A stretch of DNA of 64,000 bases from Flavobacteriales bacterium (GCA_016788485.1 JAEUSV010000091.1:138-64137); one strand, 5' to 3'; numbered from the stretch's first letter, positions 3,052 to 32,176 are shown. Made by a program: numbers and translations. The notes: a model not told the origin generated them from the letters alone.

Positions 3052-3717
3052 CTATTTTCCGTATAACCAAGCTGGGCCGTAATCGATCGCCGCATGATCA
3101 GCGTAGCGTCCCGGGAATAGATCGAAGCTCTTTCCATAGGGGGTTCGATGAAATGCCTTGTCCATCCGCACCAGCCCGGCGTAATCCGGTCCGGGCACTT
3201 CGCCCAGCTCAAAGACCACGTCGAAGAGCTCGCGGGGATGAGCGTGCAGTTTGAATTCCTTCTGCTGCGCGGGTGTGAGGTCGTTCAGCATGGTCTGTAA
3301 CCAGCCTTTGGCATTGGCATGAGCCAGTACACGAGCGGCCTCGGCATCCGTAAGGCAGCGCACCTTGCGGATCACCGCCACCTGGTAGTAGCCGTCAGAA
3401 AGCTGGTTCGACGCTGGAGTCTTGCACGTGGGCAGCGTGTTGGCCTTGATGCAGATGCGCGTAATGAGCTGCAGCTCGGTAAAACTGCGGCCGGCATGCT
3501 TTTTCGCCTTCAGGGCTTGGATGTACCCGAACTGCCACAGGCCATCGCGGTGCGCGGGGTTGAAGAGCCACTCCTCGAAACCGAAACCATGCTTGCCTTC
3601 GAATAAGTCACCTTTCGGTGTCCTGCACTTCCCGCAAAACCCAGAAGGCTTCACCCAGCCATTGGCATTGGGAGTTATGCGGGTCCAAGGGCTTTGGGCA
3701 GGGACCGTCGTGCTCAT
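3052..3717 (-). CDS. hypothetical protein (221 aa), family not recognised
   Basis: Long ORF with no competing frame. The region has lower G+C than its surroundings. It contains GFGFEEWLFN and a single CxxC. Confidence 0.55.
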   Translation of the reverse strand: MSTTVPAQSPWTRITPNANGWVKPSGFCGKCRTPKGDLFEGKHGFGFEEWLFNPAHRDGLWQFGYIQALKAKKHAGRSFTELQLITRICIKANTLPTCKTPASNQLSDGYYQVAVIRKVRCLTDAEAARVLAHANAKGWLQTMLNDLTPAQQKEFKLHAHPRELFDVVFELGEVPGPDYAGLVRMDKAFHRTPYGKSFDLFPGRYADHAAIDYGPAWLYGK

Positions 3718-3808
3718 TTCCTCCGCGCTATGCCTACAATATTATCAATTATGCTTTAGTATCGAACCTGCGACACGCAGCGCACCCTGCTGGCTAGCAC
3801 ACCTTCAA

Positions 3809-4337
3809 ATGGAGCGACAGCGCGCACCAATAATCGCCCTCCACCCCATCACCCCCGCGGACATCACGCACATCCACCGCGGCCTCTCGCACCCGGAGGT
3901 GATCCGCTACTACGCCGTGCGCTTCATGACGCTGGAGGCCATCGGAGCAGATGGACTGGTACGCCACCATCGAGCGCGAAGGCACGGGGAAGTGGTGGGC
4001 GATCCGGTCGACGGAGGACAATGAGTTCCTCGGCGCCATCGGCATCAACTTCATCCATCCGGTTCATAAGCGCTGCGAGCTGGGCTACTGGCTGCTGCCG
4101 GAGCACTGGGGCAAGGGCATCATCCACGATGCGCTCGGCCACGTGCTCGACCACGCCTTCAACACCCTGGGGCTGCACCGGGTGATGGCCGAGGTGGAGC
4201 CGGAGAACATCGCAAGTGCACGGGTATTGCTGAAGCACGGATTCCATCGCGAAGGCACCCTGCACGAGTGCGAGCGCAAAGACGGTCGCTGTATCAGCCT
4301 GGACGTGTATGCTAAGTTGGCGCCCGAGCGGAACTGA
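3809..4337 (+). pseudogene. GNAT (RimJ/RimL-type) N-acetyltransferase interrupted by a frameshift near 3930-3950
   Basis: The N-terminal part (MERQRAPIIALHPITPADITHIHRGLSHPEVIRYYAVRFMTLEA) is in the frame of ORF 3422..4024. The remainder (..QMDWYATIEREGTGKWWAI...ELGYWLLPEHWGKGI...) is in the frame of ORF 3951..4337. Deleting one nt around 3941 joins them as ...MTLEASEQMDWY... Confidence 0.55.
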
Positions 4338-4461: not shown

Positions 4462-4899
4462 ATGGCCGAGTCGTTCAACAAGCGCGAGAAAGAGAAGCGT
4501 CGTCAGCAGAAGCAGGAGGAGAAGGAACGCCGCAAGGCGGAACGCAAGGCGAACGCTCCGGGCGGTGGCTTGGACAACATGATCGCGTACGTGGACGAGT
4601 TCGGTCGCATCACCGACACGCCGCCCGACCCCACCAAGCGCCAGGAGATCAAGGCCGAGGACATCGAGATCGGCGTGCCCAAGCGCACGGCGGAGGAGGA
4701 GGATCCCACGCGCCGTGGTCGCATCGACCGCTTCGACGAGGACCGCGGCTTCGGCTTCATCCAGGAGGACGGCACGCGCGAGCGCTTCTTCGTGCACGTG
4801 AGCGAGATGATGGACGAGGTGAAGGTGGGCCAGGCCGTGATCTTCGAGGTGATGCGCGGCACCCGCGGCCTCAACGCCGTGAAAGTGCGCAAGGCGTAG
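4462..4899 (+). CDS. cold-shock-domain protein with a Lys/Glu/Arg-rich N-terminal extension
   Basis: The C-terminal third contains the CSD RNP motifs (RGFGFIQEDG...RFFVHVS). The N-terminal 90 aa are highly charged. Confidence 0.75.
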   Translation: MAESFNKREKEKRRQQKQEEKERRKAERKANAPGGGLDNMIAYVDEFGRITDTPPDPTKRQEIKAEDIEIGVPKRTAEEEDPTRRGRIDRFDEDRGFGFIQEDGTRERFFVHVSEMMDEVKVGQAVIFEVMRGTRGLNAVKVRKA

Positions 4900-5579: not shown

Positions 5580-5873
5580 ATGAAGGACATGGAGCGGCGC
5601 TTCGACGCTCCGGTGGACCTCAACGGACTGATCTTCCTGGTGGGCGTTCAGGAGCTGGGGCAGCACGCCCGCGAGTTCAAGAAGGACGAGAAGGTGGCCC
5701 TGATGCACATCGCCATCTGCGTGCTGCTCACCCCCTACGGCTACTACAAGGAACTGGGGCGCGATGCCGACGGCTGGCCGCACTTCGAGCGGGTGAAGGA
5801 CCTGCCTCCCCTCAACGAGAAGGAGCAGGAACGGCTGATGAAGGAGGCGCTATTGGACTACTTCGAACGCTGA
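5580..5873 (+). CDS. hypothetical protein (about 97 aa); start uncertain
   Basis: This is the 3' part of ORF 5043..5873, which upstream is antisense to cvpA. A coding-looking segment begins at about MKDMERRFDAPVDLNGLIFLVGVQELG. A TTG at about 5544 is an alternative start. Confidence 0.5.
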   Translation: MKDMERRFDAPVDLNGLIFLVGVQELGQHAREFKKDEKVALMHIAICVLLTPYGYYKELGRDADGWPHFERVKDLPPLNEKEQERLMKEALLDYFER

Positions 5874-18277: not shown

Positions 18278-18760
18278 TTGGCGCCCATGAAGATCACCGC
18301 CTACACCGACGGCGCCGCGAGCGGCAACCCGGGGCCCGGGGGCTACGGCGTGGTGCTGGAGGCGGGCCCGCACCGCAAGGAGCTATGGGGAGGCTACCGC
18401 CGCACCACCAACAACCGCATGGAGCTGCTGGCCGCCATCGTGGCGCTCGAATCGCTCAAGGGCACAGGGCACGAGGTCACCATCGTGAGCGACAGCAAGT
18501 ACGTGGTGGACAGCGTGGAGAAGGGCTGGGTGTTCAACTGGGAGCGCACCGGCTTCAAGAAGAAGAAGAACCCCGACCTGTGGCAGCGCTTCCTGCGCAT
18601 CTACCGCCAGCACCGCGTGCGCTTCCACTGGATCCGCGGGCACAACGGGCATCCGCAGAACGAACTGTGCGACCGCCTGGCCGTGGCCGCCCGCGAGCAG
18701 AAGGACCTTGCCGTGGACGAGGTGTACGAGCAGGAGGGCGAGGGGGAGCTGTTCGAGTAG
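18278..18760 (+). CDS. rnhA: ribonuclease HI
   Basis: YTDGAASGNPGPGGYG, TNNRMEL, DSKYV, W..V.GH.GHP.NE.CD.LA. Confidence 0.95.
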   Translation: MAPMKITAYTDGAASGNPGPGGYGVVLEAGPHRKELWGGYRRTTNNRMELLAAIVALESLKGTGHEVTIVSDSKYVVDSVEKGWVFNWERTGFKKKKNPDLWQRFLRIYRQHRVRFHWIRGHNGHPQNELCDRLAVAAREQKDLAVDEVYEQEGEGELFE

Positions 18761-18782
18761 AACCGCAAAGGCGCAAGGACGC
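18761..18782 (+). repeat. left inverted repeat of the GxxExxY cassette (AACCGCAAAGGCGCAAGGACGC)
   Basis: 20 of 22 positions match the reverse complement of 19196..19217. It begins directly after the rnhA stop codon. Confidence 0.75.
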
Positions 18783-18789
18783 AAAGCGA

Positions 18790-21207: not shown

Positions 21208-21561
21208 TCAGGCTGCGGCCTGCTGCACCTTCGGCGTGAGCAACTGGAAGTCGCTCAGCACGATCTCCGTCACGTACCGCTTCTGCCCGTCGCGGCCCTC
21301 GTAGCTGCGGTGCACCAGCTTGCCCTCCAGGGCCACCTGGGTGCCTTTGCGCAGCAGACGCTCCACCATCTCGGCGGTGCGGCCCCAGGCCACCACGGTG
21401 TGCCACTGGGTATCGGTAACGCGCTCCCCATCGGCGTTCTTGTACCGGTCGTTCGTGGCCACGCTGATCCGCGCCACCTTCCGCCCCTTGGCGATCTCCC
21501 GCACTTCCGGGTCGAAACCCAGGTTCCCGATCAACTGCACCTTGTTCTTCAGCGTGTTCAT
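21208..21561 (-). CDS. ssb: single-stranded DNA-binding protein, paralog 1; short, with no acidic C-terminal tip
   Basis: OB-fold SSB pattern: NKVQLIGNLG.DPE, TQWH.VVAWG..AE, G..V.LEG.L..R.Y....G.KRY.TEIV. Confidence 0.85.
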   Translation of the reverse strand: MNTLKNKVQLIGNLGFDPEVREIAKGRKVARISVATNDRYKNADGERVTDTQWHTVVAWGRTAEMVERLLRKGTQVALEGKLVHRSYEGRDGQKRYVTEIVLSDFQLLTPKVQQAAA

Positions 21562-21805
21562 GACTACTTGGTTTTTGGTTTGACTCATGCCGAGGTTGCT
21601 GAGGCCATCGACGGTGCAAAGGAGGAACGGTGCATTCCGGACATTCGGCCAGTAGTCATTTGTAGTCGTTCACAGGCGTTTGCAACCGTTTGCTTTACGG
21701 CCTTCGAACACGCCAGGAACCGCCGAAAAGCCCGTTGCTGCTGGTGATCCCCTACCTTTCAAGAAGGAGCGGCCACAGGCAGCGCTTGGGAGGTTACCCC
21801 GCGTC

Positions 21806-23732: not shown

Positions 23733-24884
23733 GTGATGCGCACGCTCCTCCTGTTCACCCTGCTACTGCCCGGCCTGCTCCGCGGCCAGCTCTTCGACCT
23801 GGGCCTGCGCGCCTCGGGTCCGCCCTGTGACAGCACCCTCGTGGTCGACTTCGCCGTCACCGACAACGGTGGCATGCTTTACACCTACACGGCCGATATC
23901 GACACGGGGAACGTCACCGTGGTCGGCCTGCAATGGAACCTGTACAACATCGGCCTATCCTCCGGCGCCGGACCCTCGATCACCGAACAGTACTTCGTGC
24001 CGGGCCAGTACGCAGTGTGCCTAACAGTGGATGCCCTCGATGCACAGTCGATGCCGTGCAGCAGCACCGCATGCAAGCTGGTCACCGTGTACGCCGACAG
24101 CACATGCTCCGACCTTCTGGCGGATTTCACCATCACGAACATCGCGGGCAATACCGTCACTTTCGATGAGCTCGCCTCCTTCACCGGTCCGATCGCCAGC
24201 TACGACTGGAACCTCGGCGATGGGGCTTCCGTGAACGGTCCTTCGCCCACGCACACCTTTCCCGGGCCGGGACCCTTCGAGGTGTGCCTGACGGTGACCG
24301 CCGCACCGCCCGACGATGAATGCGCCGCCACCAAATGCAAGTGGCTTTACCTGGGCCCGGGCAATGTGCCCTGCTCCACCCTGCTGCAGCCGGGCTTCCT
24401 GTTGGTGGTGGTGGACAACACCGTGGGGGTGCTGGACACCTCGCTGACCTCGGGCATGAACTACACCGTCGACTGGGATTTCGGCGATGGCTATACCACC
24501 AGCGGAGCAGTGGCCTACCATGGCTACGATGTGAGCGGATTCTATAACGTGTGCCAGACCGTCACCCTTTGGGGGCCGCTGAACACCGACACCTGTTCCT
24601 CGGTGACCTGCCAGCCGGTATATGTGGACGTGCTGGGCGTCACGGAGCGCGAGGACGCTGGGGGGATCGTGGCATGGCCGGTGCCGGCCGGGGATGCACT
24701 TACGGTCCATGGCCTCCGTCCCGGCACACGGTCGCTGCGCCTGCTGGACGGCCAGGGTCGCGTGGTGCGCGTCTTCGAGCGCGTGGTCGAAGGAGGCCTG
24801 CTTGACCTGGGCGGCATCGCACCGGGGATGTACCTGCTGCAAGAAAGGGACAGCACACGCTCGGTGCGAGTGATCAAGTCCTGA
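23733..24884 (+). CDS. PKD-repeat protein with a T9SS C-terminal sorting domain
   Basis: Repeated W.LGDG......P.H.F..PG.Y.VCLTV PKD motifs. The C-terminus is VAWPVPAGDALTV...GMYLLQ...RVIK. Confidence 0.8.
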   Translation: MMRTLLLFTLLLPGLLRGQLFDLGLRASGPPCDSTLVVDFAVTDNGGMLYTYTADIDTGNVTVVGLQWNLYNIGLSSGAGPSITEQYFVPGQYAVCLTVDALDAQSMPCSSTACKLVTVYADSTCSDLLADFTITNIAGNTVTFDELASFTGPIASYDWNLGDGASVNGPSPTHTFPGPGPFEVCLTVTAAPPDDECAATKCKWLYLGPGNVPCSTLLQPGFLLVVVDNTVGVLDTSLTSGMNYTVDWDFGDGYTTSGAVAYHGYDVSGFYNVCQTVTLWGPLNTDTCSSVTCQPVYVDVLGVTEREDAGGIVAWPVPAGDALTVHGLRPGTRSLRLLDGQGRVVRVFERVVEGGLLDLGGIAPGMYLLQERDSTRSVRVIKS

Positions 24885-24939: not shown

Positions 24940-25296
24940 CTAGTTGGCGACCTCCTCGCCTGCGTTGCTCACCAGCTCGAAGTCGTTGAGCACGACCTCC
25001 GTCACGTACCGCTTCTGGCCATCCTTGCCCTCGTAGCTGCGGTGGACCAGGCGGCCTTGCACGCTCACCTTGGTGCCCTTGCGGAGCTGTTGCTCCACCC
25101 GCTCGGCCTGCTTGCCCCAGGCCACGATGGGGTGCCATTGCACATCGTCCTGCCACGTGCCTGTCGCATCCTTCCACCGGTCGTTGGTGGCCATGCTGAA
25201 CTTGGCCACGCGGCGTCCGCCCTTCACCTCCTTCACCTCCGGGTCCCTGCCCAGGTTGCCCAGCAGCTGCACACTGTTCCGCTTCATCGTTTCCAT
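24940..25296 (-). CDS. ssb: single-stranded DNA-binding protein, paralog 2
   Basis: Collinear with paralog 1 at roughly 60% identity by eye: SVQLLGNLGRDPE, VQWHPIVAWGKQAE, LVHRSYEGKDGQKRYVTEVV. Confidence 0.85.
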   Translation of the reverse strand: METMKRNSVQLLGNLGRDPEVKEVKGGRRVAKFSMATNDRWKDATGTWQDDVQWHPIVAWGKQAERVEQQLRKGTKVSVQGRLVHRSYEGKDGQKRYVTEVVLNDFELVSNAGEEVAN

Positions 25297-25376
25297 GTTC
25301 CTGTCGTTGTTGTTCGTGGTTCGTTTCCGTTGACGACGCAAAGGACAAGCGGCCCTGGAGCGACAGTCGGGCAGTT

Positions 25377-25384
25377 GTCATTTA
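25377..25384 (+). repeat. target-site duplication, left copy (GTCATTTA)
   Basis: An identical 8-mer directly abuts the other transposon end at 29346..29353. Confidence 0.9.
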
Positions 25385-25412
25385 GGGAACTATATACCAG
25401 TTGGGACAGGCC
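25385..25412 (+). repeat. left terminal inverted repeat (GGGAACTATATACCAGTTGGGACAGGCC)
   Basis: Perfect reverse complement of 29318..29345. Confidence 0.95.
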
Positions 25413-25468
25413 GGAAAGCGCGTCCCTATTGAGATGTGTGCCTCGTTCCAACAATGATCGTGGATAAG

Positions 25469-25519
25469 TGCTGACCGGTTGCTGACGGCCTGCTGATCAC
25501 CGCCGGTAGATTTGCTGAC
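25469..25519 (+). promoter_or_regulatory. four TGCTGAY direct repeats phased at 11, 11 and 22 bp
   Basis: TGCTGAC at 25469, 25480 and 25513, and TGCTGAT at 25491. The last copy abuts the ATG at 25520. Confidence 0.5.
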
Positions 25520-26062
25520 ATGGACGCCACCGAACAGTTCGCGCACTTGCGAAAACTGCTGGACGAGGCTCTCTTGCTTGTCAGTGAGCTTGAGGCTGAA
25601 CAGTTGGTTGGTTCGCATACTGTCCTGGCTAAGCCTGATGCTCACGTCCGATCGCAACTCTTGACCCCGACCGGGAAGATCCGGGGGCTGTCCGACCGTA
25701 TCATCGGTGCCTTGCGAGAGAAGCAAGAACCAATGACGGCATCCGAGTTGACGACCGCTGTGTATGATCGCCAATATGGTCTGTCATACGACGCCATGAA
25801 GCGCAGGGTGGCCGTCTGTACATCTGCTCTCCATAAACGCCAAGGCAAGCTGGTATGGCAGAAGATGGAATCCGGAGAGGTGTACTGGTACTTGCCTGAA
25901 TGGGTAGAACAGGGGAAACAGGCATGGAAGGGCTCCTTGATAACTGATCGCCTCCTGGTGGTGCATGATATGCTGAAAAGCACCCATCCCCGCCTCCAAA
26001 CACCTACGGAAAACACTGAGACTAACCCATCACCTAACGACGACGAGAGTTCCTTGTCATGA
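25520..26062 (+). CDS. transposon cargo: 180-aa hypothetical protein, possibly winged-helix
   Basis: Unique long ORF in this stretch. The central segment (LSDRIIGALREKQEPMTASELTTAVY...GKLVWQKMESGEVYWYLPEW) resembles wHTH/HARE-HTH-type layouts. That reading is inference only. Confidence 0.55.
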   Translation: MDATEQFAHLRKLLDEALLLVSELEAEQLVGSHTVLAKPDAHVRSQLLTPTGKIRGLSDRIIGALREKQEPMTASELTTAVYDRQYGLSYDAMKRRVAVCTSALHKRQGKLVWQKMESGEVYWYLPEWVEQGKQAWKGSLITDRLLVVHDMLKSTHPRLQTPTENTETNPSPNDDESSLS

Positions 26063-26150
26063 TGATCGTGTGCCGTTCGCCGCGTCGTAAGCGGTCGAAC
26101 CCGTCCCGACCGGGACAGGGCTGAGATACCAGCCGGATGAACTGCACGCA

Positions 26151-26248
26151 ACCACCGTAGCTCAAAGGATAGAGCGTCCCGCGCCACCTACTGCTGCAAC
26201 CAGGGGAGGCACTGAGGGAAGATGCAGGTTCGAGTCCTGCCGGTGGTA
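26151..26248 (+). ncRNA. 98-nt tRNA-like gene with a grossly extended anticodon arm (apex loop CTGCAAC, GCA)
   Basis: Perfect 7-bp acceptor (ACCACCG/CGGTGGT). Canonical D arm (GCTC-AAAGGATA-GAGC) and T arm (GCAGG-TTCGAGT-CCTGC). There are 47 nt between D and T arms where 21-22 are expected. Confidence 0.5.
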
Positions 26249-26493
26249 CTAGTCGCGGCCGAAGCCGGTCCCATTAGCCGTCCAACCGGGGTGGCAGCCC
26301 CGGGCTTAGGCAGAGGAGGTAGAGCTCCCAAACGCGACCCCTTATTTCAAGCGAGGCTCGGTTCCGAAGGGGGCCGGGCCTCGTCTGCAAATGTATGGTG
26401 CGAATTACTTCGATCCAAACGCCCTCCCAGTGAGGGCGCGCCACATCCAGCGCACGAGGTCGTGGATCTAGCGGAACCTGGGGTGAACGAAGC

Positions 26494-26619
26494 TCACTTG
26501 CGCTTGCTCTTCTTGGTGGCCTTCTTGACGGCCTTCTTGGGCTTCTTGACGGCCTTGGTCATGGCGACCTTTAGCACGTCCTGAAACTCGCCCTGGATCT
26601 TCAGCGTCCGGTCTTCCAT
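26494..26619 (-). CDS. transposon cargo: 41-aa Lys-rich micro-protein, absent from the ORF track
   Basis: Hand translation gives MEDRTLKIQGEFQDVLKVAMTKAVKKPKKAVKKATKKSKRK. Nearly every codon ends in G or C. It starts 28 nt downstream of the transposase stop on the same strand. Confidence 0.45.
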   Translation of the reverse strand: MEDRTLKIQGEFQDVLKVAMTKAVKKPKKAVKKATKKSKRK

Positions 26620-26647
26620 GTCGTGAAGGTATGCGACCGACCCGGCC

Positions 26648-27571
26648 TCACTGGGCCTTGCCGATCAGTTGACGGTAGGTGATGCGGCGACCTTCGGCCT
26701 GCTGAACGGCCAGCGTATGGCGGTCCTGCTGGCTGAACTCCCGCGTGTTGTACCGGAACGTGAACTCGTCGCAGTAGCGATCCAGGTGCTTGGGGCTCAC
26801 GTAGTGGTACACACCTACCATACCGCGCTTGAAGAGCGCCCAAAAGCTCTCGATCGTGTTGGTGTGGGCGGTTCCACGCACGTACTCACCACCGCTGTGG
26901 TTCACCGTTTCGTGGATGTAGGTCCGGGCCAGTCCGGTATAGCCGTTGTGCTCGTCCGTGTACACGGTGGCATCAATGGCTACGTGCTTCCGCATAATGG
27001 GCTGGATGGTGGCCTTCTTGCTGTTCAGCACCGACTTGGCGACCACCTTACCACCACGCTGAACGATGCCGAACACGGCGGTTTTGCCAGCGCCACCCTG
27101 GGCACCTTCGATGCGCTTGTTGAGGTGCTTGTTCGCCTCCTTGCCACCGACATAGGTTTCGTCGCACTCAACTTGCCCGGCCAGCATTGCGGGCGCGTTC
27201 TCCTTCAGCATTTCACGAAGGCGCGATAGCACGAACCATGCACTCTTCTGGGTGATGCCAAGATCCTTGGCGAGCTGCACGCTGCTGATGCCTTTGGGGT
27301 GGTTGCAGGCGAGGTAGATGCCAATGAACCACACGCGGAGGGGAAGCTTCGTGTTCTCGAAGATGGTGCCGGTGGTAACACTGAACTTCTTGCCGCACTC
27401 CTTGGAGCAGCACTTGTAGCGCTTGCCGCCTTCGATGCTGTAGGCACCTACGGTACCACAGAAGTGGCACGCGGCCGGGCCTTGGCCCCAGCGCAGGGTG
27501 GCAAGGTGCTTACGGCAAACCCCTTCGTCGCTGAATTGGGTGGTGAGCTGGATGATATTCTCGAAGCGCAT
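26648..27571 (-). CDS. IS1595-family (ISXO2-like) DDE transposase
   Basis: N-terminal zinc ribbon (CPHCG-like: ACHFCG...YKCCSKEC), an HTH (ISSVQLAKDLGITQKSAWF), and a DDE core (ECDETYVGG...VYTDEHNGY...HTNTIESFW). Confidence 0.9.
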   Translation of the reverse strand: MRFENIIQLTTQFSDEGVCRKHLATLRWGQGPAACHFCGTVGAYSIEGGKRYKCCSKECGKKFSVTTGTIFENTKLPLRVWFIGIYLACNHPKGISSVQLAKDLGITQKSAWFVLSRLREMLKENAPAMLAGQVECDETYVGGKEANKHLNKRIEGAQGGAGKTAVFGIVQRGGKVVAKSVLNSKKATIQPIMRKHVAIDATVYTDEHNGYTGLARTYIHETVNHSGGEYVRGTAHTNTIESFWALFKRGMVGVYHYVSPKHLDRYCDEFTFRYNTREFSQQDRHTLAVQQAEGRRITYRQLIGKAQ

Positions 27572-27592
27572 GGGGCTGTGTTATTGAACAGC

Positions 27593-27616
27593 CCAAAGGT
27601 ATATACAATGCATATA
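27593..27616 (-). promoter_or_regulatory. TIR-like promoter/operator module upstream of the transposase gene
   Basis: The minus strand reads TTGACA-N17-TACCTTTG (-33/-7 like). It overlaps the palindrome GTATATAC (27598-27605) and CATATAC (27610-27616). Confidence 0.5.
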
Positions 27617-27620
27617 CGTG

Positions 27621-27779
27621 TCAAGTGGTGGCCGAAAGCTTTTCCTCCAGGGTCCGGCGGATGAAGTCGGACAAGGTCCGTCCCTCCTTGGCCGCAGCCT
27701 TGACGAGGCGAGCCTTCAACTTGGCGTCTATGCGGATCAGGACGTTCGTGTCCTTGGGCGGGAGCGTGGTCTTTGCCAT
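27621..27779 (-). CDS. transposon cargo: 52-aa ribbon-helix-helix (CopG/Arc-like) protein
   Basis: MAKTTLPPKDTNVLIRIDAKLKARLVKAAAKEGRTLSDFIRRTLEEKL shows a beta-strand then helix-helix pattern typical of RHH regulators and antitoxins. Confidence 0.65.
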   Translation of the reverse strand: MAKTTLPPKDTNVLIRIDAKLKARLVKAAAKEGRTLSDFIRRTLEEKLSATT

Positions 27780-27787
27780 GGGGCCAA

Positions 27788-27805
27788 GATATACAACGTA
27801 TATAC
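27788..27805 (-). promoter_or_regulatory. second copy of the promoter/operator module, upstream of the RHH gene
   Basis: ATATACAACGTATATACG matches ATATACAATGCATATACG (27601-27618) at 16 of 18 positions. It contains GTATATAC at 27798-27805. Confidence 0.5.
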
Positions 27806-27860
27806 GCAGAAGCGCCCTGGTCGGGAAACCAGGGCGCTTCTGCGAGGGGGCAGGAAGCAA

Positions 27861-28043
27861 CTATGATGCTTCGCCAGAAACGCGGTAGACAAAGGACCCC
27901 ACCGCCTTGAGGCCGTCATATTCTACGCTGTCGTAGACGAATGAGCTTGCCATGTCAAGGGGCGAATCCTCAAGTGCCTCAACCGCGCTAATCATCTCAT
28001 CATCAAGGCCTAATGCTCTGAGTTGGTCAATAATCTCGGACAT
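27861..28043 (-). CDS. transposon cargo: 60-aa acidic protein, translationally coupled to the protease gene
   Basis: Its ATG shares one nt with the protease stop (TAATG at 28041-28045). The sequence is Asp/Glu-rich (MSEIIDQLRALGLDDEMISAVEALEDSPLD...). Confidence 0.55.
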   Translation of the reverse strand: MSEIIDQLRALGLDDEMISAVEALEDSPLDMASSFVYDSVEYDGLKAVGSFVYRVSGEAS

Positions 28044-29086
28044 TACTTCGTGGCCGTTTTAGGGTCGTGCAATTTAATGACGCTGTATGACTCCGAAATG
28101 AACAGTTTAGCGAAGCTGGTCCTCTCGAACAGGAAATGCATAACCGCCCACAGCCTCCGCATCGCTACGTCAAGGCCCTTAATCGACTCAGCATGAGTGA
28201 TTTTCAACTCGCACTCACTCCACAGAACATCCCTCGGAATACCCCGGCTATGGGACTTCCACTTTGAGGCTCTGGCGAGCCGCTCGGCAATCTCGCCCGC
28301 CCGCTTCCGCTTCTCATCTGGCGTTACGGGGATACCGACTTTCGTCGTTTGATGCTCTGTCCAGTTCTTGAACTTGTAGTCATGGAGGTAGTTTTCAACC
28401 ATCTCCTTTGAATAAGCGGTGGCCTGGATCGCGTTCCCGATTTCCTTGGCGTCAAGCCTATTCAAGATCTGTACGTCTGTCCAGTCTGGCTTTTCGTTCT
28501 TGAGCATCCTTGCCTTGCCCCTATCCTGAATATCCTGGATAACGGTCAAGACTCCTTGTAATGGAACGAACACGCCATCTCGATTCGGGCCCTGAGGGTC
28601 GGTTGGCCCTAAGTACGACGATGGCCCCATGATAATGTCATTACCGCTCGTGGCAAATATGGTTCCTGCGCTCATTGCGGATTGCAGGATAATGAAGGCC
28701 ACGTCATCGAACTTCGCCCGAATCTTATCAACGAACTTGGCCACTTGCTGAGCACTTCCGCCAGGGGTAACAAGGACAATATCAAGTGCCTTTCCAGTGG
28801 CGTCGACCGAGTTTAGTAGTTCGTCAAACGGAAGGTCATCGGTGTTGTCGATTGCCGTAAATGCGCCAACCTTTGCGTTGATGACGTTCGCTGCATAGCA
28901 AATGATTGGTCGCTTACGAATCGCTTGAATCTCCTTCAGGCCCAACACAATGTCATCGGGGGCTGCTATTTGTGTCAGTCCAGCCGCAACCAAGCTGGCG
29001 TATTCTTCCCCAACCTTCATTATATCATAAGGTGTTTTCCTGGTCGGTGGCGTTGGGGGGGGCGGTGGAGGAGGTGTGGTTGCCAT
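28043..29086 (-). CDS. transposon cargo: SDH-family Clp/crotonase-fold serine protease (serine dehydrogenase proteinase-like)
   Basis: LDIVLVTPGGSAQQVAKFVDKIRAKFDDVAFIILQSAMSAGTIFATSGNDIIMGPSSYLGPTDPQ matches the characteristic core of this family. The N-terminus has a PPPPPPPTPP run. The alternative start is 29113. Confidence 0.75.
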   Translation of the reverse strand: MATTPPPPPPPTPPTRKTPYDIMKVGEEYASLVAAGLTQIAAPDDIVLGLKEIQAIRKRPIICYAANVINAKVGAFTAIDNTDDLPFDELLNSVDATGKALDIVLVTPGGSAQQVAKFVDKIRAKFDDVAFIILQSAMSAGTIFATSGNDIIMGPSSYLGPTDPQGPNRDGVFVPLQGVLTVIQDIQDRGKARMLKNEKPDWTDVQILNRLDAKEIGNAIQATAYSKEMVENYLHDYKFKNWTEHQTTKVGIPVTPDEKRKRAGEIAERLARASKWKSHSRGIPRDVLWSECELKITHAESIKGLDVAMRRLWAVMHFLFERTSFAKLFISESYSVIKLHDPKTATK

Positions 29087-29149
29087 GTTTCTAATACATA
29101 GACCCCTAAGCAAGGAAATGTTTTTGAAACCCTACCGCATCACCCAAGT

Positions 29150-29157
29150 GTATATAC
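29150..29157 (-). promoter_or_regulatory. third GTATATAC module, upstream of the protease gene
   Basis: CCCAAGTGTATATAC parallels CCCAAAGGTATATAC (27591) and the TIR sequence CCCAACTGGTATATAG (29325). Confidence 0.45.
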
Positions 29158-29317
29158 ATTACCTTCGACACGTTCTTTCACATCGCGGGCACCGGGTCAG
29201 TAGGCCGGTGACGAAGCAGGGGGCGGGCGCATGAACCATCCCCAGGGAGCCTAGCTAAGGCACCAACACCCGCAGACCCGCAAATCGAGGCCGACCGGCC
29301 AGCGGGCGCACTCATAG

Positions 29318-29345
29318 GGCCTGTCCCAACTGGTATATAGTTCCC
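29318..29345 (+). repeat. right terminal inverted repeat
   Basis: GGCCTGTCCCAACTGGTATATAGTTCCC is the perfect reverse complement of 25385..25412. Confidence 0.95.
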
Positions 29346-29353
29346 GTCATTTA
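29346..29353 (+). repeat. target-site duplication, right copy (GTCATTTA)
   Basis: Identical to 25377..25384. Confidence 0.9.
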
Positions 29354-29479
29354 CAGTCGCTTACAGTTGTTTGCTGTCGTTTGTTTGGCGCCTTGGTCCT
29401 TGGCAGGGGGATCGGCTCGCGGACCCGCTGGGTGCTCGTTCCCGCTATATTTAGCGGCCCAAGTGAAGACTCCCCATAC

Positions 29480-30325
29480 ATGAGCGAAGCGAAGAAGAAG
29501 ATCATCCTGGTGCCGACCGACTTCACCAAGGTGGCCGATTGCGCCATGAACCATGCGATGAAGCTGGCCGAGCGCAGTGAAGCGGACGTGGTGCTGCTCC
29601 ATATCGTGGACAAGGCCAATGATGTGGACGAGGCCATGACGAAACTGGAGCTGGAGGTCGGCCGCGCACGGAAGTGGAACACGACCGTGAAGGTGAGCCC
29701 GCTGGTGCGCGTGGGAAGCGTTTACGAGGACATCGGTGATGCGGCGGCCGAGATCGGCGCAGGCCTCATCATCATGGGTACCCATGGCATGCGCGGCATG
29801 CAGTTCATCACCGGAAGCCGCGCGCTCCGCGTGATCACCAACAGCTCGGTGCCCTTCATCGTGGTGCAGGAGCGCCTGATCAAGGACGAAGGCTACCGCG
29901 ACATCGTGGTGCCGATGGACCTGCACAAGGAATCCCGCCACAAGCTGACGCTGGTGGCGGACATGGCGCAGTACTTCAAGAGCCGTGTACACCTGGTGGT
30001 GCCGAAGGAGACGGATGAGTTCCTGCACCACCAGCTGGAGAACCACCTGAAGTTCGCCAACACCTACCTGAACGAGCGTGGCGTGGAGCACACCTCGGTG
30101 ATCCTGGACACCGACAGCGATGAGTTCGTCAAGGGCCTGATCCGCTACGCGGTGAAGGTGGACGCCGACCTCATCGCCATCGTGAACATGCTCCAGAACA
30201 GCATCTTCGGCGTGCTGGGCGTGCCCAACGAGCAGGAGGTGATCACCAACGAACCCATGGTGCCCGTGCTGACCATGAACCCCCTCAACAACACCGTGAG
30301 CAACATGCCGGTGTGGGGGCCCTAG
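29480..30325 (+). CDS. tandem-domain universal stress protein (UspA family)
   Basis: KKIILVPTDFT...LLHIV and GTHGMRGMQFITGS, plus a second Usp-like half. The start is the internal ATG. Confidence 0.8.
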   Translation: MSEAKKKIILVPTDFTKVADCAMNHAMKLAERSEADVVLLHIVDKANDVDEAMTKLELEVGRARKWNTTVKVSPLVRVGSVYEDIGDAAAEIGAGLIIMGTHGMRGMQFITGSRALRVITNSSVPFIVVQERLIKDEGYRDIVVPMDLHKESRHKLTLVADMAQYFKSRVHLVVPKETDEFLHHQLENHLKFANTYLNERGVEHTSVILDTDSDEFVKGLIRYAVKVDADLIAIVNMLQNSIFGVLGVPNEQEVITNEPMVPVLTMNPLNNTVSNMPVWGP

Positions 30326-30347
30326 GCGCATTCCGACGGAGAACAGG

Positions 30348-30374
30348 AAAGGCCCGCTTGAAGCGGGCCTTTTT
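30348..30374. terminator. bidirectional rho-independent terminator
   Basis: AAA-GGCCCGC-TTGAA-GCGGGCC-TTTTT lies between the convergent usp and phosphatase genes. Confidence 0.8.
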
Positions 30375-30391
30375 CATCGCATCGCAGCGGT

Positions 30392-32176
30392 CTACGCACG
30401 CATCCCGATCACCAGGATGTCGTCGACCTGTTCATGGGCGCCCTTCCATTGGTTGAGGGCTTCGAGCAGCATGATCTTCTGGCGTTCCATGGGCAGGCCA
30501 TGGATCTCCAGGAGCAGCTCGCGGAACCGCCGGTACAGGAACTTCTTGCCCTTGGGACCACCGAACTGGTCGGCGTAACCATCGGAGAAGATGTAGATCA
30601 CATCCCCTTTGCGCAGCTGTATGCGGTGGTCGGTGAAGGCGCGGCCCTGCAGTTCGAAGCCACCGATCGGCATCTTGTCGGGGGTGAACTGGACCACCTC
30701 CCCCTCGCGCACCAGGTAGAGCGGGCAGTTGGCACCTGCGTAGTCGAGCTCGAGGCTCTCGGGGTCGAGCGCGCACAGGGCCATGTCCATGCCATCGCGC
30801 ACGAACTGGTCACGGTCCTTGTGCAGCGCGTCGAACGCGATGCGGTTAAGGTCCTCGAGCACCTTCGATGGACGCACATGGTCCACCGTGCGCACGGCCT
30901 GGTTGAGCCCATTGTGGCCCACCAGGCTCATGAAGGCGCCCGGCACACCATGGCCGGTGCAATCGACCGCGGCGAACACCACCTTGCCGGCGACCCTGTC
31001 GAACCAGTAGAAATCACCGCTCACGATGTCCTTCGGACGGTAGAACACGAAGCTCTCGGGCAACAGCTCCTTGATGCGCCTCTCGGGCGGCAGGATGGAC
31101 TCCTGCAGGCGCTTCGCGTAACGGATGCTGTCCGTCACGTTCTTGTACAGCTCCACCACCTTGCGGCTCTGGCGCTCCACCTCCTCCTTCTGCCGCACCA
31201 CCTCCTCGGTGCGTTCGTTCACCTTCTGCTCCAGGATGCGCTCGCGCTCGGCCAGCTCCTGCCTCATCTTCAGCAGGGCATGCCCAAGCACGTCCTCCTC
31301 GCTGAGCGGGTCGTAAGCCGTGTTGAAGTCACCGGCCGCCACCGCGTGGCTGAAGTCGGTGGTGCGCTTGAGGCCATCGATGAGCCCCGCCAGGGCCTTG
31401 CCCATCTCTCCGATCTCGTCGTTGCGGTCGGGGATGCGGCTGCGGGGGAAGACCCCCCGGCCAAGGCTGAGCAGCACACTGCGCAGACGTCGCACGGGGC
31501 CAACGATGCCCCGGACGATCAGGAACGCCACCACCGTGCCGATCACCAGCAACGCCGTGCCCAGGTAGAGCACGAAGAACTGCAGTGAGTCGAAGCTGCG
31601 GATCATGCTCTCGCTCAACTGCTGGCGTTTGGCCTCCTGCAGCTTCAACAGCACATCCAGGTCGTTGAGCACCTTCTCCATGCGCTCATCGAGCGGACCG
31701 CCCTCTTCGGCCATGTCGCTCCGCTCGAGGTACACGAGGGGGTCGCGATAGCTCTCCAGGGAGGGCAGCATGAGCTTGATCTGGTCGTGCATGTCGAAGA
31801 GCTCCTGCATCTCGCTCGTGGTGCGGTTCAGCAGCCCCACCTCCTCCTTGCCCCAGTAGGCCGAAAGGGTGTCGATGCGGTCCATCACCGCCGGGAGCTC
31901 CTTGGTGGTCAGGTCCACCAGGGCGGTCTTCTCAGGTGCGTCGGGGATGCTCTCCACCTGGGCCCAGTGCTTGATGAGCATATGGGCGTTCACCAACACG
32001 TTGCGCAGCTCCACCAACGCATCCACGCCGGGGGAGTACACATTGTTGATCTGGTCGTTGATGCTCCTGCTGCGTTCCAGCGAACGGCTGGTGAGGAAGA
32101 CCACGAGCATGGCGAAGAAGATGAACAGGCCGAAGCCCATCCCGATCTTCCTTCCGATGGTCATCCTGAACCGCAT
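30392..32176 (-). CDS. membrane sensor with HAMP domain and PP2C/SpoIIE-type serine phosphatase domain
   Basis: It has an N-terminal TM, a periplasmic region, a second TM, and HAMP (IVGPVRRLRSVLLSLGRG...NDEIGEMGKAL). The C-terminus carries DIVSGDFYWF...AAVDCTGHGVPGAF...SDGYADQ. Confidence 0.85.
   Translation of the reverse strand: MRFRMTIGRKIGMGFGLFIFFAMLVVFLTSRSLERSRSINDQINNVYSPGVDALVELRNVLVNAHMLIKHWAQVESIPDAPEKTALVDLTTKELPAVMDRIDTLSAYWGKEEVGLLNRTTSEMQELFDMHDQIKLMLPSLESYRDPLVYLERSDMAEEGGPLDERMEKVLNDLDVLLKLQEAKRQQLSESMIRSFDSLQFFVLYLGTALLVIGTVVAFLIVRGIVGPVRRLRSVLLSLGRGVFPRSRIPDRNDEIGEMGKALAGLIDGLKRTTDFSHAVAAGDFNTAYDPLSEEDVLGHALLKMRQELAERERILEQKVNERTEEVVRQKEEVERQSRKVVELYKNVTDSIRYAKRLQESILPPERRIKELLPESFVFYRPKDIVSGDFYWFDRVAGKVVFAAVDCTGHGVPGAFMSLVGHNGLNQAVRTVDHVRPSKVLEDLNRIAFDALHKDRDQFVRDGMDMALCALDPESLELDYAGANCPLYLVREGEVVQFTPDKMPIGGFELQGRAFTDHRIQLRKGDVIYIFSDGYADQFGGPKGKKFLYRRFRELLLEIHGLPMERQKIMLLEALNQWKGAHEQVDDILVIGMRA

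Follow-up and report, generated by a model that had tools for sequence, protein, structure and literature searches.

Within a 64,000-nucleotide stretch of DNA from a Flavobacteriales bacterium (the window, to which all positions refer unless another contig is named; the locus tags of the host metagenome-assembled genome, MAG, begin JNL05_) an element of 3,961 bp is present in the leader of one of two paralogous ssb genes. In all likelihood this is a transporter insertion sequence (IS), an IS that carries passenger genes, of the IS1595 family, which has been mobile recently and would be composed of core and passenger modules. An empty allele is direct proof of the insertion. In a different sample a contig of 1,396 bp (L168, Logan SRR23950804_69794) has the octamer GTCATTTA, which abuts both ends of the element in the window, just once and lacks the element. 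Positions 1-328 of this contig correspond to window 25057-25384 at 99.7% identity and positions 321-1396 to window 29346-30421 at 99.5%, with six mismatches over about 1.4 kb. The overlap of the two matches is exactly the 8-bp target site duplication (TSD), and the filled and empty alleles differ by exactly the 3,961-bp element and one 8-bp TSD copy. The same contig also encodes the neighbouring Usp protein with no residue changed, and the filled right junction is reproduced at 100% identity in an independent assembly (L001, run SRR10555722). As a strain with flanks 99.5-99.7% identical still has the empty site, the event must be recent, and both this and the movement of the element as one unit are strongly supported. 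A recent insertion had been proposed in a preliminary description made from the sequence of the window, and the single GTCATTTA of the empty allele bears this out.

The boundaries of the element and its transposase gene are as follows.

25377-25384, no strand: left TSD copy, 8 bp, GTCATTTA, abutting the terminal inverted repeat (TIR); the single copy in the empty allele.
25385-25412, plus strand: left TIR, GGGAACTATATACCAGTTGGGACAGGCC, 28 nt, 100% complementary to the right TIR.
26648-27571, minus strand: IS1595-family transposase of the DDE type, 307 aa (924 bp), zinc ribbon at the N terminus.
29318-29345, minus strand: right TIR, the reverse complement of GGGAACTATATACCAGTTGGGACAGGCC.
29346-29353, no strand: right TSD copy, GTCATTTA, directly abutting the TIR.

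The perfect 28-bp TIRs and the identical 8-bp direct repeats can be read directly at these positions, as originally described. Allowing up to three mismatches, the TIR is found at only these two places in the window, against a chance expectation of 0. The lower G+C content that had also been remarked on is evident on measurement, the element having 0.564 and the 10-kb flanks 0.654 and 0.646; it is lowest in a protease cassette (0.51-0.52), the remainder of the element being at 0.55-0.63. Removal of the element and one TSD copy reconstructs an empty site that aligns, across the junction, with the leader of the other ssb paralogue (ssb-1, 21214-21549, minus strand, 61% amino-acid identity), so that the collinearity claimed earlier is upheld. 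An open reading frame (ORF) at 18383-18784, equal in length to the ssb gene, was considered as the paralogue and rejected. The leaders of the two paralogues (21550-21700, and 25297-25384 with 29354-29420) have in common a TCCTTTGC box and CAAAC-type words with a period of about 10 nt, in which Tandem Repeats Finder called no tandem array; the IS parts the upstream CAAAC-type words from ssb-2.

Assignment to the IS1595 family is supported by the transposase, the TIRs and the TSD alike, as had been proposed. The transposase matches Pfam PF12762 (DDE_Tnp_IS1595) over the full length of the model (2.1e-45, 1-153/153), PF12760 (Zn_ribbon_IS1595) at 8e-8 (32.6 bits, cut-off 25.4) and NCBIfam NF033547 (transpos_IS1595) at 3.5e-60 (203.5 bits, cut-off 75). 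The zinc-ribbon residues C35, C38, C54 and C59 are kept in at least 97% of 121 transposase relatives, in which D137, D206 and K248 are also conserved; in our placement the third acidic catalytic residue would be E241. An 8-bp TSD, a zinc finger and a domain named DDE_Tnp_IS1595 are features of the family, and the N-terminal zinc finger Zn_Tnp_IS1595 is present in all of its groups except IS1016 (PMC8101967). All of these are found here, together with TIRs that start with GG (GGGAAC...) and both filled and empty sites. That 8 bp is the duplication size of the family, as the preliminary description stated, agrees with the same source (PMC8101967) and with the 8-bp TSDs of two related elements, L002 (GTGTGTTC) and L011/L012 (TTCCTTTT). 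The nearest annotated plasmid transposases are at most 50% identical and are labelled merely 'IS1595 family transposase'. Scans with the transposase reached at most 47% identity in genomes (mostly Acidobacteriaceae) and at most 45% in metagenomes save for one related element, L085, and apart from L085 are uninformative for the clade. The ends, like the DDE(x6)K signature, probably resemble those of the ISNwi1 group, which has passenger-carrying members.

The remainder of the element contains the following features, and all of the genes listed in the preliminary description (the 924-bp transposase gene, the protease, the 60-aa acidic protein, the ribbon-helix-helix (RHH) protein, the 180-aa protein, the Lys-rich micro-ORF and the tRNA-like gene) are present.

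25520-26062, plus strand: 'orphan' protein, 180 aa, with no family match in Pfam, NCBIfam, PHROG or PADLOC.
26151-26249, plus strand: tRNA-like gene (Rfam RF00005, 52 bits, E=2.5e-9, gathering score 29).
26243-26340, plus strand: structured RNA motif of ~90 nt that follows the tRNA-like gene directly; five helices, the hairpin loop C(C/U)CAUUA being invariant.
26494-26619, minus strand: Lys-rich micro-ORF, 41 aa, pI 10.5, directly downstream of the transposase gene.
27598-27617, minus strand: upstream of the transposase gene, operator-like direct repeat GTATATGCATTGTATATACC, which overlaps a -7 box (TAccTTTG) of the Bacteroidota type.
27621-27782, minus strand: RHH (CopG/Arc-like) protein, 53 aa (PF01402, 27.6 bits, cut-off 20.5; PHROG Arc-like repressor).
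27788-27805, minus strand: operator-like repeat GTATATACGTTGTATATC, immediately 5' of the RHH start codon.
27805-27844, minus strand: perfect hairpin of 17 bp, flanked by the acidic ORF on one side and the RHH promoter on the other.
27861-28043, minus strand: acidic protein, 60 aa, pI 4.05, its ATG overlapping the stop codon of the protease gene (TAATG).
28043-29086, minus strand: serine protease of the SDH type with a ClpP fold; 347 aa if translated from the ATG at 29086, 325 aa if Met23 is the start.
29150-29157, minus strand: lone half-operator, GTATATAC, upstream of the protease gene.
29158-29317, minus strand: subterminal non-coding leader of ~160 nt, adjoining the right TIR and 80% identical to L002 4652-4818.

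A search for further copies of the TIR and of the element had been proposed. No exact copy was found, but the search did return related elements with homologous TIRs, two of them with TSDs of their own.

L002 (with L003-L006): 3,796 bp; transposase 89% identical in amino acids, with two frameshifts; TIR GGGAACTATATACCAGTTGGGA, TSD GTGTGTTC.
L011/L012: 4,208 bp; transposase 73% identical in amino acids; TIR GGTAACTACTAACCAGTTGGGACA, 24 bp and perfect; TSD TTCCTTTT.
L172, 5516-9754: about 4.24 kb; transposase 69% identical in amino acids; 25-bp perfect TIRs; on a phage-like contig.
L085: about 1.9 kb or less; transposase 69% identical in amino acids; right TIR present.
L170, 5688-7619: about 1.9 kb; no transposase; the same TIR pair with one mismatch; matching TSD absent.

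L002 contains a homologue of the 'orphan', a tRNA(UGC), the RNA motif, the Lys-rich ORF, a 72-aa membrane protein and a NYN protein, which matches the PADLOC candidate HEC-09 at 3.7e-49. In many samples this copy occupies one and the same genomic site, and it therefore looks fixed and decaying. L011/L012 contains an RHH-like gene, DUF433-PIN_10, a proteasome-like protein and one more ORF, while L172 holds an 'orphan' homologue, an RHH gene, the transposase, a Lys-rich ORF of 39 aa and three small ORFs. L085 is a minimal form with the leader, RHH, transposase and one small ORF. L170, on a 35% GC IMG/VR phage contig, may be a non-autonomous cassette derivative. At about 150 other loci with distant IS1595 relatives none of the extras of the clade (RHH, Lys-rich ORF, 'orphan', RNA) was seen. 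Outside the IS, on the phage-like contig of L011, ARAGORN called a permuted tmRNA-like gene at 3529-3891, and a single TIR is present at 14109-14129 of L169, near the end of the fetched stretch. In the window itself a 383-aa repeat-rich protein is encoded upstream of the element (23733-24884, plus strand); its C-terminal tail is typical of type IX secretion substrates, with which a Bacteroidota origin of the window fits.

Comparison with these relatives alters how the contents of the element are to be divided. The preliminary description took the bulk of it to be uncharacterised cargo, which holds for the protease pair (about 1.3 kb); the RHH protein, the Lys-rich ORF, the leader and the 'orphan' with its RNAs, on the other hand, recur in relatives. 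Since they do so in L002, L085, L172 and L011, the RHH protein, Lys-rich ORF, leader and 'orphan' look like accessory equipment of the IS clade, and by this comparison only the cassette of protease and acidic protein is specific to the present element. The RHH gene upstream of the transposase gene is near-identical in L085 and 60% identical in L172, with an RHH-like gene in L011. The operator-like sites have the form GTATAT(A/G)C-N3-GTATAT(A)C as direct repeats; GTATATA is found ten times in the window, eight of these within the element against 0.22 expected, and a related sequence, TATATACCAGTTGGG, is present within each TIR. At the spot upstream of its RHH start L085 has GTATATACACTGTATATC, and AATGTATATACACT is common to this operator and to the half-operator of the protease gene. 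The layout of RHH gene and GTATATAC repeats is also found in L085 and L172, and in a variant form in L011, which suggests that the RHH protein is the element's own repressor and not cargo; it is probably a repressor of the element's own promoters. Outside the element the window has a single GTATATAC palindrome, at 2469-2476. An antitoxin role for the RHH protein in a type II toxin–antitoxin (TA) pair is not supported, since in the window, as in L085, L011 and L172, the gene 3' of it is that of the transposase; its matches to RelB, TacA and FitA are weak and under the cut-offs.

The Lys-rich ORF follows the transposase in L002, where it is frameshifted, and in L172 (MAKKEQPLKITGTLDGVLRVAVTPKK...). 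L011 too has the core of the leader, CGGCCTACTGA(C/T)CC ... AAAGAAC, located between its TIR and its RHH gene. No hairpin in the leader is conserved in register across the elements, and for this reason the leader is treated as a sequence motif. A subterminal box, GAAAGAAC-N5-7-(C/G)AAGGTA, is seen at a distance of about 150-190 nt from the tips of the elements in the window (29158-29200), at both ends of L002 (about 1195-1215 and about 4655-4680), in L011 (about 5735-5760) and in L172 (about 5680-5710), and may be a protein-binding site. In L011 the leader comes directly before the RHH and transposase genes, whereas between leader and RHH gene the window has the protease cassette and L172 the 'orphan' module. 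With contents that differ in the window and L172 and are lacking in L011, this position behaves as a cargo slot.

The cassette in this slot is composed of the protease and acidic-protein genes. The protease scores above the cut-off for PF01972 (34.8 bits against 31.3) and far below that for the NCBIfam equivalog NF047768, Clp_like_SDH (40.4 bits against 250); it belongs to a divergent SDH subfamily and is not the equivalog. It also matches phrog_11747, a phage protein family of undescribed function, at 3.8e-42. There are 296 homologues, about 50-56% identical, across phyla and nearly all unannotated, in which the TPGGS and MSAGT motifs are invariant. Among PDB entries the NfeD protease 1510-N matches best (E=0.018), with MSAGT aligned to its catalytic-Ser region. 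A literature search on the SDH-type protease family brought up only papers on an unrelated 'SDH'. The overlapping start and stop codons predict that the acidic protein is translationally coupled to the protease, and the 17-bp hairpin is probably the terminator of the cassette. In two unrelated genomes (L166 and L167), and there away from any IS, a protease homologue is followed within 4-9 nt by an ORF of 66-70 aa, which shares the N-terminal motif L(K/R)xxG(F/L)x(E/D)E of the acidic protein. Recurrence of the pair in the absence of the IS argues that it was a pre-existing two-gene cassette captured by the IS. Placed behind a retained half-operator, it is probably expressed under the control of the element. 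In both L166 and L167 the genes upstream of the protease homologue were considered as relatives of the 'orphan' and found to be unrelated.

By analogy with the kind of genes in the sister elements, and by this analogy only, it is weakly suggested that the protease pair is an addiction or defence-type module, in which the acidic protein might act as inhibitor, substrate or adaptor. PADLOC-DB v2 gave no match for five window proteins, and HEC-09, the counterpart of the NYN protein, gave no protection in published tests (bioRxiv 10.1101/2024.01.29.577857), both of which tell against such a role. The pair may instead serve ordinary housekeeping or stress proteolysis and be carried by chance, an explanation that has a substantial though minority share of the probability. 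Besides the lack of a PADLOC match it would account for the mostly metabolic genes around the cassettes of L166 and L167, and the nearest solved relatives of the protease are NfeD proteases that process membrane proteins. It sits less well with the distribution of the protease family, which is patchy and metagenome-wide with about 50% identity across phyla, with the phage protein family that it matches and with distant homologues that adjoin HicAB in phage accessory regions. The sister elements, moreover, hold TA or defence-candidate genes in their variable slots. A viral scan with the protease gave no match.

At the other end of the element the 'orphan' gene, the tRNA-like gene and the structured RNA motif lie in series. 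The 180-aa protein, called an orphan in the preliminary description, has no match in the family databases, but it is not without relatives: homologues are present in L002, in L172 and elsewhere in the same MAG (P0242), and its small conserved family has 36 clusters at E<=1e-3 among 1.84e9 representatives, with a conserved core TPxGxIRGL...EPMT...RRVxVxTS...W.LP.W. A low-confidence AlphaFold2 (AF2) single-sequence model has a long N-terminal helix and then a winged-helix-like H-H-H-beta-beta arrangement; with a predicted local distance difference test score (pLDDT) of 42, it was too poor for a fold search. P0242, on another contig of the MAG (L165), is 68% identical and shares with the 'orphan' gene ~25 nt of upstream sequence, CAACAATGATCGTG.ATAA. 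In the 1.1 kb of this contig that was covered no TIR or tRNA was seen, and a GC-rich stretch that by eye would form multiple hairpins follows the P0242 gene.

The tRNA-like RNA of the preliminary description is real as judged by its Rfam score, with an aberrant anticodon arm. Its acceptor, D and T arms are canonical and its minimum free energy (MFE) fold is a cloverleaf, but the anticodon region has 35 nt where the model has 9, and the anticodon arm by itself does not exceed shuffled sequence in stability (z=0.35). ARAGORN proposes either 'Pyl-CUA' or Cys-GCA with a 12-nt 'intron', which are mutually incompatible, and as a decoder tRNA the gene fails, having no canonical 5-bp anticodon stem or 7-nt loop and an ambiguous anticodon. 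At the equivalent place L002 has a 73-nt tRNA(UGC), also at 52 bits, and none was found in L172, so that an 'orphan' gene followed by a tRNA or tRNA-like gene on the same strand is seen in the window and L002. Long 'tRNA' calls near the distant relatives L110 and L014 were set aside as weak ARAGORN calls without TIR context.

The structured RNA motif, which had so far escaped notice and whose start is given as 3 nt past the tRNA-like gene, matches no Rfam family. The stretch is 80% identical to L172 6516-6610 (plus strand), which likewise follows an 'orphan' gene, and RNAalifold on this pair gives 26 base pairs in five helices. A covariance model built from the two (R1) finds a third copy 3' of the tRNA in L002, at 1343-1433 on the minus strand (E=7.5e-5). 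In the three sequences 75 of 75 cells are paired and 9 of the 26 pairs are changed on both sides; none of 500 shuffles matches this and controls in which the alignment was slid collapse. These counts come from three sequences only, in an alignment fitted to the model, which lessens their weight.

The intact acceptor/T-arm half of the tRNA-like gene could, speculatively, be a processing signal for RNases P and Z that frees the downstream RNA. If the three components belong together, the freed RNA with the winged-helix-like protein would either steer the element, through regulation of transposition or choice of target, or act on host RNA. That they form a functional ribonucleoprotein accessory system of the IS1595 clade seems rather improbable at present; with it, an RNA-based accessory module would be described for the first time in a DDE IS of the family. 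A less remote explanation, if still an unlikely one, is that the tRNA-like gene and RNA motif are functionless, decaying remnants of captured host tRNA genes. This would explain the aberrant anticodon arm in the window and the lack of any tRNA in L172, and also that the L002 tRNA, as read from its sequence, lacks the G3:U70 alanine identity pair despite a UGC anticodon and that it cannot be aligned with the tRNA-like gene of the window beyond generic tRNA features. Decay would not readily explain, however, why both copies have kept their acceptor, D and T arms intact, why full pairing with two-sided changes is kept in the RNA motif across elements whose 'orphan' proteins are 26-28% identical, or why the order 'orphan', tRNA-like gene, motif is retained in two elements in which other modules have been shuffled.

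For the element as a whole the following picture is favoured. The zinc-ribbon DDE transposase recognises the 28-bp TIRs and inserts the 3,961-bp unit in its entirety, by a staggered cut of 8 bp. The core of the clade would consist of the TIRs, the ~160-nt leader, the RHH repressor, the transposase and the small Lys-rich protein, with the repressor binding GTATATAC repeats over two promoters, that of its own gene and that of the transposase. Variable slots would hold NYN/HEC-09, DUF433-PIN_10 with the proteasome-like protein, or small secreted-looking proteins in the relatives, and in the present element the passengers would be the protease cassette and the protein-RNA module ('orphan', tRNA-like gene and structured RNA).

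Several observations weigh against this picture. The left junction is visible solely in the window's own assembly. The exact TIR has 0 occurrences in 185,579 representative genomes, and look-ups of the exact transposase and protease products gave no record beyond the same locus; those of SSB and of P0241, a sequence 100% identical to the 'orphan', gave no record. With no second copy of the exact element found, ongoing mobility rests on one filled/empty polymorphism. Among the relatives, the transposase gene of L002 (2326-3249) has two frameshifts and its Lys-rich ORF one, and L172 is without a TSD, its flanking octamers ACCGATCC and TCCCTTGC being different, which may reflect recombination between copies or loss of one flank. 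Binding of the RHH protein to the GTATATAC repeats is predicted from their position only.

It is quite improbable that the 3.96-kb unit never transposed as such and arose in place in two steps, with a minimal IS of about 2.6 kb (leader, RHH, transposase, Lys-rich ORF and 'orphan'/RNA module) arriving first and the protease cassette later. The low G+C content of the cassette relative to the rest of the element could be taken in this sense, as could its boundaries, which are a duplicated operator half-site (29150-29157 against 27788-27805) and its own terminator hairpin, and its existence elsewhere without an IS. Just two states of the locus have been seen, though, empty in L168 and full in the window and L001, and the cassette lies inside the TIRs beside the conserved leader, where L172 holds other passengers, which fits capture before insertion. 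That the locus is an ancient and fixed one, syntenic with ssb and merely mimicking a transposon, could appeal to the lack of any other identical copy in public collections, but its probability is practically nil given the empty allele with near-identical flanks and a single GTCATTTA, the perfect TIRs and TSD, a G+C content unlike that of the host and the relatives at unrelated sites with their own TSDs, and the objection that the empty site might never be observed is met by L168.

A recently mobile transporter IS at this locus offers a clean natural case in which an entire IS has moved together with its cargo, the filled and the empty allele both being found in almost identical strains of an uncultured Flavobacteriales bacterium. 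The IS1595 clade to which it belongs, in Bacteroidota and their phages, appears to have a fixed chassis of TIRs, leader, RHH regulator, transposase and Lys-rich ORF that takes swapped small cassettes, such as the protease pair, the NYN nuclease or the PIN TA pair. With a fixed chassis and swapped cassettes such elements are plausible short-range shuttles for genes of the addiction or defence type, and they offer a route to nominate candidates, for example the widespread and unstudied pair of protease and acidic protein. The conserved structured RNA beside the tRNA-like gene is an unexplained component of the element.

Transporter IS, which carry passenger genes, were defined on the IS1595 family and are said to be confined to it and to the IS66 family (bioRxiv 10.1101/2021.05.26.445724; PMC3129680), and for those of the IS1595 family PMC3129680, in its passage on them, cites Siguier et al. 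2009. The definition (bioRxiv 10.1101/2021.05.26.445724) describes the present element, in which the protease cassette lies within the TIRs and has moved with the element. As all features of the IS1595 family are found, the element belongs to this already described kind, and the term 'unknown functional module' of the preliminary description overstates the novelty of its architecture. It resembles the IS1595 transporter IS in its DDE_Tnp_IS1595 domain with N-terminal zinc ribbon, its GG-starting TIRs, its 8-bp TSD and its passengers inside the TIRs. Transporter IS of the family go back to Siguier, Gagnevin and Chandler (2009); ISfinder groups with passengers are, for example, ISNwi1, ISPna2 and ISNha5. 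A total of about 4 kb is within the size range of passenger-carrying IS1595 members. The present clade has, in addition, a conserved RHH regulator and its operator repeats, together with a Lys-rich micro-ORF and the 'orphan' plus tRNA-like gene and structured RNA; to our knowledge neither RHH/operator control nor the Lys-rich ORF nor a protein-RNA module has been described for the family.

Among mobile insertion cassettes and derivatives resembling miniature inverted-repeat transposable elements (MITEs) a parallel is found in L170, with the same TIR pair round about 1.9 kb of non-transposase genes, which suggests that the clade also has transposase-less derivatives, whereas the window element is autonomous with its transposase gene intact. 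Transposase promoters controlled by a repressor are known from IS1 (InsA) and from the Tn3 family (TnpR as repressor). As in these, the gene of a small DNA-binding protein lies upstream of the transposase gene, with sites that overlap the promoter and a related sequence in the TIRs, but the putative regulator here is of the RHH (CopG/Arc) type. The protease resembles the NfeD-type PF01972 proteases (PH1510 1510-N) in its ClpP/crotonase-like fold signature, with the TPGGS oxyanion and (A/M)SAGT nucleophile motifs, and departs from SDH/NfeD-type proteases in an extra C-terminal region of ~180 residues and an obligatory small acidic partner gene. Finally, tRNA-like processing elements are known, as in mascRNA downstream of MALAT1 and in tRNA-linked small RNAs. 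As with mascRNA, the acceptor/T-arm half of the tRNA-like gene is intact, the anticodon half is aberrant and another structured RNA lies directly 3' of it, but here the context is a bacterial IS.

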